A stretch of DNA of 64,000 bases, taken from Calditrichia bacterium (lineage in GTDB: Bacteria > Calditrichota > Calditrichia > RBG-13-44-9 > J075). Below the pieces are notes generated by a model that saw only the letters and a list, made by a program, of their open reading frames with translations, was not told where the DNA came from and did no database searches. The translations under genes and the position numbers were made by a program. Where the stretch lies: contig JBOEGD010000030.1 of the NCBI GenBank assembly GCA_050633245.1, forward strand, positions 64,001 through 128,000, in the 5' to 3' direction. Of the stretch, positions 32,511 through 35,265 are shown piece by piece. Each line of letters opens with the position of its first letter. Positions within the stretch are counted from its first letter, which is position 1.

Positions 32511-32624
32511 AGGAAAGACCTTCTTACTTATGGAGTTTTCTTTGGCTAAAAGATAATGGAAGGAGAGCAAATAAACCAAGGGATCGACTGCGATTTCGAT
32601 GTTTAAAATCGCAGTCGAAAAAAA

Positions 32625-33695
32625 TTAAGCCTGCGGCTTCATATATGTTGCAAGATTGTCTTTATAAGACTTCTCTTCCGGATTCAACTCGGACGCTTTC
32701 TTCATTGCCTTAATGGCTGCCTCTGCATTGCCATTCGCAAAATGAAGTTGACCCAGCGTATCCCAAATCGCATCAGCTTCGGGTTCTAACTTCAGCGCTG
32801 CTTCGGCAACTTCAATCGCACGGTCGTACTGCTTATCCATTTTACCTTTAAAGACAAACCAGGCATAGGCATTCATCATATTTGCGTTTTCCGGCATACG
32901 CTTAATCGCGGCTTCATAGGCGGCAACGGCACCCTCGGAATCGTCGTTCCTTGCACTTTGGCGCGCGAGGCTACTATAGCTGCGCGACAGGAATGGACTA
33001 TCGTCAGGCAGAGAAGCGATCAGATTCTTTAGCTTACTCATATCACCCTTAGCGGCAGCATAACCTGCCAGACGGTATTTCGCCTCGTCCGCCAAGCCTT
33101 TCTCATTATTTGGATCTAAACTGAGAAGAGCTTCATAATACTTTGCGGCACTTTCATCATCTTTTCGCATGGAGTATTTATCGGCAATTTGCTTTGCCAA
33201 CTCTGCACTCTTATTGCTTTCAAACTGACTGGTTAAATCAGAAAGTGTGCCCGTGCCTTTGAGGTAATCTTTTACCTTCTGAACATACTCATCTTTATCG
33301 CCACCAAACCCAACCAGGCGATCAATTTCATTGCCATCTTTATCCAAAAAGATAACGGTTGGATATCCGGCAACGCTAAACTTCTTCATGAGATCCGGGC
33401 CTTCACCCTTCTCTCCATCAATTTTCATGCTAACAAAATTGGTGTTAAAAAACTCTCCTGCTTCACTGTCCTGAAAGACCGACCGGTCTAAACGTTTACA
33501 GGGACCTCACCATACGGCAAAGAAATCGAGCATCATCATTTTCTGCTTGTCGGCAGCCATTTTGGTTGTCTCATCAAATGAAGTCTTTACAAACTGGACT
33601 CCATTTGAAGCAACTTCAGTAGACGGACTTTCCGTCTCGTAGCCACCACAGGCAAGCAAAAACAACAACGCTGTTAGTAAAAGCGGCTGTTTCAT
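32625..33695 (-). CDS. Probable selenoprotein: thioredoxin (UGPC)-TPR lipoprotein, 356 aa, Sec at codon 63
   Basis: ORFs 33507-33695 and 32625-33428 share a frame; read-through gives LDFFAVW-U-GPCKRLDRSVFQDSEAGEFFNTNFVSMKIDGEKGEG; lipobox LLAC; GYPT cis-Pro motif; TPR NAYAW..WDTLG. Confidence 0.85.
33468..33505 (-). promoter_or_regulatory. Bacterial SECIS-like hairpin
   Basis: After UGA: lower stem GUCC(C)UG/CAGGAC, upper stem AGACC/GGUCU, apical loop GGUC starting 23 nt downstream. Confidence 0.7.
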
Positions 33696-33820
33696 GCGTT
33701 TCTCCTCTGGTTGTTAATATGACAGGACTTAGTAGAACAAAAATAATACATCAACTTATAAATAACGTCAATATACCACAAAAGATTCATTCGCCTGCCA
33801 GAGTCAAACTCTGGTGCGAC

Positions 33821-34759
33821 TTATTTATTCTTATCGTTCTTCAAAGACTCTCGCAATGCCTTGGCATCCTGCTTTACCTTATCACTGGGACGCTTAAACA
33901 GTTTCTTTCCTTCGGCATAAACACGTGCTGGTGGCGTGCGTAAGTCCCAAACAATGCGAAACCAGGACAGCACCCGCAAACCATAATGTGCCGGATCAAA
34001 CTCCCACCAGTAAAAGCCCTGACGCTCCGAGGACGGAAAACGGTGATGGTTATTATGCCATCCTTCACCCAGGGTAATAATGGAAATCAGCAAGCTGTTG
34101 CGACTATCATCATCTGTCTTAAAACGCTTGCGCCCGTAAACATGAGTAAGCGAATTTACCGTAAAGGTGCCGTGATACAACAGCGTTGTACTGATGAAAA
34201 ATCCCCAAACCACCATTTGAAAACCCGATGTGCCGAGCTCCGGAAAAAATGAGTTCAGCGTATAACCAATTCCGTACATAATTCCAGCCAGCGTAACCGG
34301 TGGAATCCAGTAAAAACGATCCAGGAAATTCAACTCGGGAAATTTAATTAAATCTTTTACCAGCTTCGTATGCGTACATTTGTATTTATCACACAAGATC
34401 CAACCAACATGCGACCAAACAAATCCTTTTCTTGGGGAATGTATATCCTCCTCGGTGTCGGAGTGCTTGTGATGATGGCGGTGATGCGCTGCCCACCAAA
34501 GCGGGCCTTTTTGTGCAGCAGACGTCCCGAGATAAGCCATCATAAATTGAAAAACGCGGGTGGTTTTATACGTACGGTGTGAAAAATAGCGATGGTAGCC
34601 GGCAACTATTCCGAACATGCGAATACTATACGTCAACAATAATGCGACAATTGCTACCCAGCTAACGCCTGCCCATATGACTAATACGCAGGCAATGTGA
34701 ACTAAAAAAAACGGAATACCTTGAAACCAATTTGTGACTTCATCTGATGGTCGTGACAT
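33821..34759 (-). CDS. Acyl-CoA/acyl-lipid delta-9-type fatty acid desaturase
   Basis: His boxes YHRYFSH, HHRHHHKHSD, GEGWHNNHH; start at MSRPS after GAGGA. Confidence 0.92.
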   Translation of the reverse strand: MSRPSDEVTNWFQGIPFFLVHIACVLVIWAGVSWVAIVALLLTYSIRMFGIVAGYHRYFSHRTYKTTRVFQFMMAYLGTSAAQKGPLWWAAHHRHHHKHSDTEEDIHSPRKGFVWSHVGWILCDKYKCTHTKLVKDLIKFPELNFLDRFYWIPPVTLAGIMYGIGYTLNSFFPELGTSGFQMVVWGFFISTTLLYHGTFTVNSLTHVYGRKRFKTDDDSRNSLLISIITLGEGWHNNHHRFPSSERQGFYWWEFDPAHYGLRVLSWFRIVWDLRTPPARVYAEGKKLFKRPSDKVKQDAKALRESLKNDKNK

Positions 34760-34866
34760 GAAGTAATCCTCAATGTTAAAACAGTTACTCACCGGTACAT
34801 CAACCGGCTAAACAATTCTGATTAAAAATATAGCCGTTTTAGCACGATTTACCAATCATTTTGAAA

Positions 34867-34984
34867 CAGAACTCAGAACTCAGAACTCAGAACTCAGAAC
34901 TCAGAACTCAGAACTCAGAACTCACAACTCAGAACTCAGAACTAAGAACTCAGAACTCAGAACTCAGAACTCAGAACTCAGAAC
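34867..34984. repeat. Heptamer tandem repeat (CAGAACT) x about 17
   Basis: 118 bp, two variant units (CACAACT, AAGAACT); then (GACAATC) x about 3 at 35001-35020. Confidence 0.95.
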
Positions 34985-35265
34985 AGTATAAAGTTCAATG
35001 GACAATCGACAATCGACAATATAAAGTGCAATGATTCGAAAATTAAGTTGTCAAACGAATGTGCGGCAGTAGTATCGCACAGGAGTGCTTACCAGTTGCG
35101 TGGAGCTACTGCAAAAAAGATTGCCGGGGTGGAATAATAACGTTAGATTAAAGTGATACTTCTGCCAGAACCAAATGGAACATGCGGCGTTATATTGAAT
35201 AGCAGGTGTCAGGAAGCAAAACATATCAACAAGCAGAAGAACAACTAAGAGTTGAAGCATCATTC

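Follow-up and report, generated by a model that had tools for sequence, protein, structure and literature searches.

A predicted UxxC thioredoxin-fold selenoprotein with a lipoprotein signal and a tetratricopeptide repeat domain in an uncultured Calditrichia bacterium

The gene considered here lies on the minus strand of a 64,000-nucleotide stretch of DNA (positions 64,001 to 128,000 of contig JBOEGD010000030.1, assembly GCA_050633245.1; hereafter the window) from the genome of an uncultured Calditrichia bacterium (6.35 Mb in 59 contigs, 97% complete). We conclude, with a probability of roughly 0.9, that positions 33695..32625 form one selenoprotein gene, split in two by gene callers, in which an in-frame TGA is recoded to selenocysteine (Sec). 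This reading had been put forward in a preliminary description made from the letters of the window, and is supported by the Sec machinery of the genome, by the alternation of Cys and Sec codons among orthologues, and by a conserved hairpin shaped by codon choice. The parts of the gene on which the argument turns are the following:

32625..33695, minus strand: the whole putative selenoprotein gene, 356 codons followed by a TAA stop (32627-32625)
33695-33693, minus strand: start codon ATG, with AGAGGAGA upstream of it
33507..33509, minus strand: UGA codon 63, the proposed Sec, at the first position of W-U-G-P-C and aligned with the Cys-form orthologues
33500-33498, minus strand: Cys66, the predicted resolving Cys of W-U-G-P-C

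The minus strand around the TGA reads TTT GCC GTA TGG TGA GGT CCC TGT AAA CGT, or F-A-V-W-[TGA]-G-P-C-K-R, and under translation table 11 the same frame yields two open reading frames (ORFs), one at 33695..33507 (62 aa, stopping at the TGA) and one at 33428..32625 (267 aa). When the TGA is read as sense, which is the sole departure from table 11, a single 356-aa frame results, with 26 codons (64-89) between the TGA and the Met at which the 267-aa ORF starts, and full-length orthologues of 341-390 aa span both halves of the gene. Elsewhere in the window TGA is the stop of 5 of the 33 stop-to-stop frames that run to 250 codons or more, and the code is therefore the standard one, with TGA not reassigned. 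The preliminary description had placed the TGA at the first Cys of a WCGPC motif, followed by a frame open over 26 codons into the 267-aa ORF and by a hairpin with a G-starting 4-nt loop 23 nt after the UGA, and had proposed a single 356-aa product upon read-through and site-specific recoding rather than a change of code; the minus-strand sequence, the translated frame, and the use of TGA as a stop bear out each of these points.

Taken at face value, the two ORFs of table 11 could instead be two products, a 62-residue exported lipopeptide and an independent 267-residue tetratricopeptide repeat (TPR) protein starting from Met90, and both the 267-291-aa calls of the second part carried by databases and a weak promoter-like match inside the gene (33448-33421) would accord with this. 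The 267-aa piece, however, would lack a signal peptide and would begin midway through the thioredoxin fold, after helix H77-86 and before strand E87-93. The Cys-form orthologues are single proteins of ~360 aa, and no stop interrupts the 26 linking codons, whose sequence is conserved. We regard two separate products as very unlikely.

Orthologues were searched for in 41 related genomes, in 86 genomes of the phylum, in genome_contigs (one genome per species), and in metagenome_contigs. Among the 41 related genomes, full-length orthologues without a stop are present in G014, G004, G008, and G012, and an orthologue with one TGA is present in G037 and G033 and also, at greater distance, in G039 and G040; when the TGA forms are read through, the alignment places VWCGPC and DWCVPC in the same column as DGUGGC, DWUPSC, DWUGSC, and the VWUGPC of the window. 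A match at E<=1e-25 was found in 12 of the 86 phylum genomes, six with the TGA (G000, which is the window genome, G081, G037, G033, G078, and G080) and six without a stop. The 80 loci from genome_contigs comprise 5 with TGA, 72 with a Cys codon, and 3 without the family motif, and they spread the family over Calditrichota, Ignavibacteriota/Bacteroidota (mostly with W-C-K-W-C), and Fidelibacterota. From metagenome_contigs came 3 TGA forms among 81 motif matches in 80 loci; one of these, L133, is 77% identical to the window gene, and another, L210, may duplicate L111. Codon 63 is thus TGA in 15 loci available as DNA (14 besides the window) and TGC or TGT in more than 150, the in-frame stop at its position is always TGA and never TAA or TAG, and the sequence is conserved on both sides of the TGA across orthologues. 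The preliminary description had held that Cys codons in all close homologues would count against Sec, and that a genome devoid of Sec machinery would do the same; the codon was instead found to alternate between TGA and TGC/TGT, and the machinery is present, as described below.

The distribution of the two forms was examined in a tree of 33 rows, composed of 14 Sec forms, 8 Cys forms found in Calditrichota or on the closest metagenome contigs, and 11 Cys forms of the Ignavibacteriota/Bacteroidota type picked arbitrarily from ~150, and leaving out the split L125, the probable duplicate L210, and the duplicates L037 and L038. On this tree the Cys/Sec label has to change 5 times, and at least 3 of the changes are forced by well-supported branches.

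Two irregularities were seen among the relatives. In G080, the orthologue lies in two pieces (C13:318968-320003; L125 and L128), 319560-320003 with the TGA and 318968-319528 without it, a layout pointing to either a frameshift or a break in the assembly of that genome. In addition, one 4773-nt contig (runs X3 and X4) matches window positions 32600-33800 twice, 194 nt apart, with one close and one diverged copy, so relatives appear to carry two tandem paralogues; two database proteins of 267 aa each, P0003 and P0019, both come from one 7384-nt contig, which fits the same arrangement.

The genome encodes SelA (475.6 bits, over the curated cut-off), SelB from a gene that follows selA directly (359.8 bits, likewise over its cut-off), a selD whose profile match also exceeds the curated cut-off, and a tRNA-Sec with the anticodon tca. 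The gene for the formate dehydrogenase alpha subunit (fdhA) contains one in-frame TGA, and selD, located at C14:56308-57231 (-), has one of its own in the context K-T-C-G-[TGA]-A-A-K.

Bacterial Sec insertion sequence (SECIS) elements are hairpins directly 3' of the UGA that present a small G-containing apical loop ~20-26 nt away. The corresponding candidate in the window gene has two parts:

33468..33505, minus strand: SECIS-like element, composed of a lower stem GUCC(C)UG/CAGGAC and an apical hairpin
33489-33476, minus strand: apical hairpin AGACC-GGUC-GGUCU, with arms at 33489-33485 and 33480-33476 and the loop at 33484-33481

The apical hairpin starts 18 nt after the UGA, and the first G of its loop lies 23 nt after the A of the UGA. 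In the same genome, the UGA of selD is followed by CAGUCC-GGUC-GGGCUG and that of fdhA by GGCC-GGUCU-GGUC, and a CC-GGUC-GG core is common to the hairpins of selD, fdhA, and the window gene; with its in-frame TGA and this hairpin, SelD is itself predicted to be a selenoprotein. Compared with the SECIS of the E. coli fdhF type, the element is alike in lying within the coding sequence directly 3' of the UGA and in having a small G(U) apical loop, and different in the loop consensus of this genome, GGUC(U), and in having no Rfam match. A scan of both strands of the 6.35 Mb for GGUC(U) loops on stems of at least 4 bp returned 712 hairpins, from which the chance of such a hairpin 17-27 nt after a given TGA is calculated as ~6e-4. 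Only 6 TGAs genome-wide combine a hairpin at 17-27 nt with 60 open codons on each side, including those of fdhA and the window gene.

Other sites of this kind were noted in the genome. At C26:110824-111420 (+), an in-frame TGA in the context C-P-F-[TGA], of the CxxU type, has a GGUC-loop hairpin 20 nt downstream, and the frame probably encodes another thiol-oxidoreductase-like selenoprotein. TGAs with a GGUC-loop hairpin and open frames also occur at C5:102827-103279, where the frame resembles a secretion-tail motif (F-P-N-P-F-[TGA]), at C27:122240-122698, and at C35:15171-15557, and these three may be chance matches.

The hairpin is shared by the TGA forms of the family. The first 10 to be collected all have a hairpin of 4-6 bp with a 4-6-nt loop, a G at loop position 1 or 2, and a loop start 20-26 nt from the U of the UGA, and the same hairpin recurs in the later TGA forms L123-L125 and in the metagenome forms L133 and L136. 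The predicted fold of nt 13-45 averages -6.3 kcal/mol in the 10 TGA forms vs. -3.1 in 76 Cys forms (Mann-Whitney p 4e-6, a value that overstates the difference given that the rows are related). In the core clade, the stem is built by the Asp and Val codons of a conserved L-D-x-x-V-F/Y segment; the pairing codons GAC and GTC occur together in 9 of 9 TGA forms, whereas the 8 Cys rows (6 of them distinct) never have both. Between the two, the TGA forms carry G-rich codons, namely CGG-TCG, CAG-TTG, CGT-GAA, CGT-GAT, or AGG-TCA, and the Cys rows of the core clade encode K-A, K-I, or R-A at the same two positions. When L133 is compared with the window gene, synonymous changes surround an identical hairpin.

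These observations bear on two further explanations of the TGA. The first is a pseudogene or an assembly error, in which a nonsense mutation or a miscalled base turned TGC or TGT into TGA: the assembly is that of an uncultured genome in 59 contigs, TGC to TGA is a single-base change, and the contigs of other runs are only partly readable at codon 63. Against such an accident stand the recurrence of TGA at codon 63 in 14 further loci, drawn from several families within the phylum as well as from outside it, the conservation on both sides of it, the conserved hairpin with a codon bias specific to the TGA forms, and a full Sec machinery in the genome, and we find it hardly credible. The second is read-through of another sort, by near-cognate suppression with Trp or Cys or under a reassigned code, with which the frame is compatible in that it stays open whatever amino acid TGA is taken to encode. 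A reassigned code is ruled out by the normal use of TGA as a stop in the window, at the ends of the five long frames mentioned above, and the redox Cys position of the codon, the hairpin like those of selD and fdhA, and the tRNA-Sec also speak against this explanation, which we consider barely conceivable.

Several results weigh against Sec at codon 63, or against the view of the protein that follows from it, and were set against the evidence above. Recoding, lipidation, the direction of the reductase, the link to DsbD, and the client role of the TPR domain are all predictions from sequence or from a model. A 76-nt fold of the region is no better than shuffled sequences (z = -1.46; 17 of 200 shuffles fold as well), the GAC/GUC stem comes in part from conserved Asp and Val codons such that some pairing is expected from coding alone, and an Rfam scan of 33380-33580 returned no SECIS family and three chance-level matches (snoRNA, ToxI). 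Given that a hairpin of this kind at this distance is unlikely to arise by chance but the 76-nt fold is unexceptional, it is the placement and the loop of the hairpin that carry the signal, and not the total folding energy. Contigs from 4 runs cover the UGA and none of 40 listed differences (of 108) falls at 33507-33509, which does not settle whether the relatives have the UGA. SelA is encoded in 71 of the 86 phylum genomes; each of the 8 that have a TGA form is among them, but so is each of the 6 that have a Cys form, and the co-occurrence of SelA with the TGA therefore discriminates little. Lastly, no conserved neighbour hinting at function was found by Pfam among 32 flanking ORFs in the window and 11 other loci.

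The predicted protein has four recognizable parts:

33648..33695, minus strand: signal peptide with the lipobox L-L-A-C, residues 1-16, predicted from sequence
33650-33648, minus strand: Cys16, the predicted lipidated N-terminus, in a lipobox-like L-L-A-C after a hydrophobic stretch
33261..33596, minus strand: thioredoxin-fold domain, residues ~34-145, of the DsbD-gamma / Thioredoxin_7 type (Pfam, PDB, and Foldseek)
32640..33248, minus strand: TPR superhelix, residues ~150-352, with 12 helices (Pfam, model helices H151-H352, and Foldseek)

The lipobox pattern is that of a signal peptide ending in an invariant lipidated Cys, and the N-terminus, MKQPLLLTALLFLLAC-GG, fits it; a Cys follows the hydrophobic N-terminal stretch in most core-clade orthologues as well, and some distant relatives have no such Cys. 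We infer that the product is an exported lipoprotein, predicted to be anchored to lipid via Cys16. An AlphaFold model based on 27 sequences (mean predicted local distance difference test, pLDDT, 91.8; predicted template modelling score, pTM, 0.82) consists of ~30 disordered residues, a thioredoxin fold, and 12 helices, with residues 17-33 as a disordered tether and pLDDT below 50 at residues 1-7 and 11-29. Pfam assigns residues ~36-139 to Thioredoxin_7 (PF13899, 48.9 bits, cut-off 27), to PF00085 (46.3 bits, cut-off 23.5), and to Thioredoxin_2 (46.5 bits), and residues ~210-350 to TPR_2, TPR_14, TPR_19, and other TPR families; Foldseek matches the TPR part to consensus TPR proteins. The combination of a thioredoxin and a TPR domain, as first proposed, is thus upheld by Pfam and by a confident model, in which W-U-G-P-C precedes helix H64-74, the placement expected of a thioredoxin-fold oxidoreductase. 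Among NCBIfam models none reaches its cut-off, and the best matches other than those to TPR models are to TsoB and DsbD, in both cases to the C-terminal domain.

The closest solved relative of the thioredoxin domain is 2kuc_A, a putative disulphide isomerase of Bacteroides thetaiotaomicron (E 1.2e-36; Foldseek target template modelling score, TM, 0.83, with 45% identity), followed by the C-terminal (gamma) domain of DsbD (E ~1e-20). Both 2KUC and DsbD gamma are domains of periplasmic reducing pathways, and both use Cys where the window protein would use Sec. Membership in DsbD itself was rejected, as NF001419 reaches 59.1 bits against a cut-off of 330 and does so over the C-terminal domain only, and the window protein has no membrane domain. 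The only solved proteins with thioredoxin and TPR parts for which a Foldseek alignment extended through both (316-332 columns) are CnoX/YbbN (PDB 3QOU and 3QDN). Membership in these chaperedoxins was likewise rejected (TM 0.26-0.32; root mean square deviation 21 A), the window protein having a predicted signal peptide, which CnoX is not known to have. The genome holds a separate gene of the CnoX/YbbN type at C24 ~339.7-340.6 kb (+), with thioredoxin (WCGPC) and TPR domains and no signal peptide, and its predicted product corresponds, in the cytoplasm and with Cys, to the exported Sec protein.

From these features a putative functional model may be drawn up. SelB with Sec-tRNA(Sec) would bind the hairpin located 18-34 nt after the UGA within the coding sequence, and Sec would be inserted at codon 63 in place of termination; the product would then be exported and tethered by the lipidated Cys16 via a flexible linker of ~15 residues. 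W-x-G-P-C is the classical reducing-type thioredoxin motif, and in W-U-G-P-C, Sec63 would be the attacking nucleophile and Cys66 the resolving residue. Disulfides or sulfenic acids of envelope proteins would most likely be reduced via a selenenylsulfide intermediate, and the enzyme would probably be recharged by a DsbD-like membrane protein; a DsbD-like gene outside the window, at C16:151484-152629, may encode this electron donor. The C-terminal TPR superhelix would probably hold a client or partner protein. The product may plausibly be described as a periplasmic selenol/thiol reductase whose TPR arm would bind clients. A more specific proposal, that the protein is the first example of an undescribed selenoprotein subfamily of lipid-anchored extracytoplasmic chaperedoxins, which would rescue oxidised envelope proteins by means of a DsbD-gamma-like domain with Sec and a TPR clamp for clients, is put forward tentatively, as the odds appear to be against it.

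A role in cytochrome c maturation was weighed as well, with the selenoprotein being a CcmG/ResA-like thioreductase fused to a CcmI/CcmH-like TPR chaperone. It would draw on a score of 41.7 bits for PF23914 (TPR_CcmH_CycH), where the cut-off is 42, on weak NCBIfam similarity to ResA, TlpA, and DsbE, and on a Foldseek match to 3f9u, a C-terminal domain from an exported protein related to cytochrome c biogenesis. Generic TPR families score equally high or higher, however, the ResA, TlpA, and DsbE scores are far under their cut-offs, and no cytochrome-maturation (ccm/res) genes adjoin the gene in the 12 loci examined; assignment to the cytochrome c maturation families was rejected on these grounds, and we consider the role itself unlikely.

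The flanks of the gene contain candidate signals for its expression:

33743..33771, minus strand: sigma-70-like promoter match TTGACG-17-TATTAT, a consensus match only
32584..32639, minus strand: 3' end signals, a short hairpin over the stop and then a T run (32639-32617)
32639-32627, minus strand: terminator-like site overlapping the stop
32618-32584, minus strand: inverted repeat of 13 bp, read from the sequence

Promoter-like sites in the region number 4, where 2.3 are expected. Flanked in this way by promoter-like and terminator-like signals, the gene is probably transcribed alone. No RNA run was found among the sequencing runs listed as sharing the window, the best of which share at most 0.24 of the sampled words. 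The only neighbour that recurs is a gene for a fatty-acid desaturase, found in the window at 33821-34792 (-) and at L021:2257-3255, the locus of the distant G040 orthologue. Upstream of the desaturase gene of the window, at 34861-35034 (+), is a short ORF of Q-N-S-E-L-R-T repeats that corresponds to an intergenic 21-nt tandem DNA repeat.

The window protein was compared with known selenoproteins. The thioredoxin selenoprotein is a small, single-domain protein that is not known to carry a signal peptide. To this the window protein adds a predicted lipoprotein signal, a domain of the Thioredoxin_7/DsbD-gamma type, and a 200-residue TPR domain; as far as the available descriptions of the thioredoxin selenoprotein extend, the two are alike in the thioredoxin fold, Sec in place of the first Cys of CxxC, the existence of Cys homologues, and a SECIS just after the UGA. 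In the portion of the 2022 review PMC9312934 that was covered, more than 80 prokaryotic selenoprotein families are counted, most of them with a thioredoxin-like fold, and its table has an experimentally verified Thioredoxin entry (pfam00085, UxxC) and predicted entries for a 'Thiol:disulfide interchange protein' (Thioredoxin_2, UxxC) and a 'PDZ domain-containing protein' (Thioredoxin_7, CxxU). Compared by description, as these entries allow, the Thioredoxin_2 and Thioredoxin_7 selenoproteins resemble the window protein in being predicted thioredoxin-fold proteins of related Pfam families, and the Thioredoxin_7 entry differs in that Sec takes the place of the second Cys (CxxU) and that PDZ, not TPR, is the accompanying domain. 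Similar selenoprotein families and frequent exchange of Cys and Sec are reported in the part of PMC1794560 that was covered, and the covered part of a 2022 preprint (10.1101/2022.07.06.499078) describes extracytoplasmic selenoproteins with signal peptides, by which account export is not new. The window protein is thus a new UxxC thioredoxin-fold selenoprotein of a class that is itself well known and some of whose members are exported. The union of a lipoprotein signal, Thioredoxin_7, and TPR was not found described in the literature searched: no TPR-fused thioredoxin selenoprotein appears in the covered part of the PMC9312934 table or among the passages returned by full-text literature searches, and the preliminary remark that the architecture may be poorly described was, within that literature, a fair one. 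Full-text searches also returned nothing joining Calditrichaeota with selenocysteine, and for Caldithrix with selenoprotein only an unrelated match.

In the protein database, none of the 40 homologues found is named a selenoprotein, and 9 of the 26 that were aligned are truncated calls beginning just after CxxC, which is how gene callers behave at an in-frame TGA. The window gene thereby corrects a recurrent database error, at least nine homologues having been deposited as 'TPR proteins' that lack their N-terminus. Among bacterial selenoproteins, those of the UxxC thioredoxin-fold kind are the most common, and the gene is therefore a new member and not a new principle; knowledge of recoding or of thioredoxin chemistry is unchanged by it. 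The family offers the same protein segment with and without the hairpin, which shows a SECIS carved from conserved codons, and its Cys and Sec forms are good natural training data for SECIS and selenoprotein finders. A Thioredoxin_7-TPR lipoprotein subfamily is added to the bacterial selenoproteome, and a selenoprotein set is added to Calditrichota. If the tentative chaperedoxin proposal is true, the protein would be an extracytoplasmic counterpart of CnoX, and its subfamily would have exchanged Cys for Sec or Sec for Cys on at least 3-5 occasions in Calditrichota, Fidelibacterota, and their allies, each switch having built a SECIS from the same conserved Leu-Asp-x-x-Val-Phe/Tyr codons.

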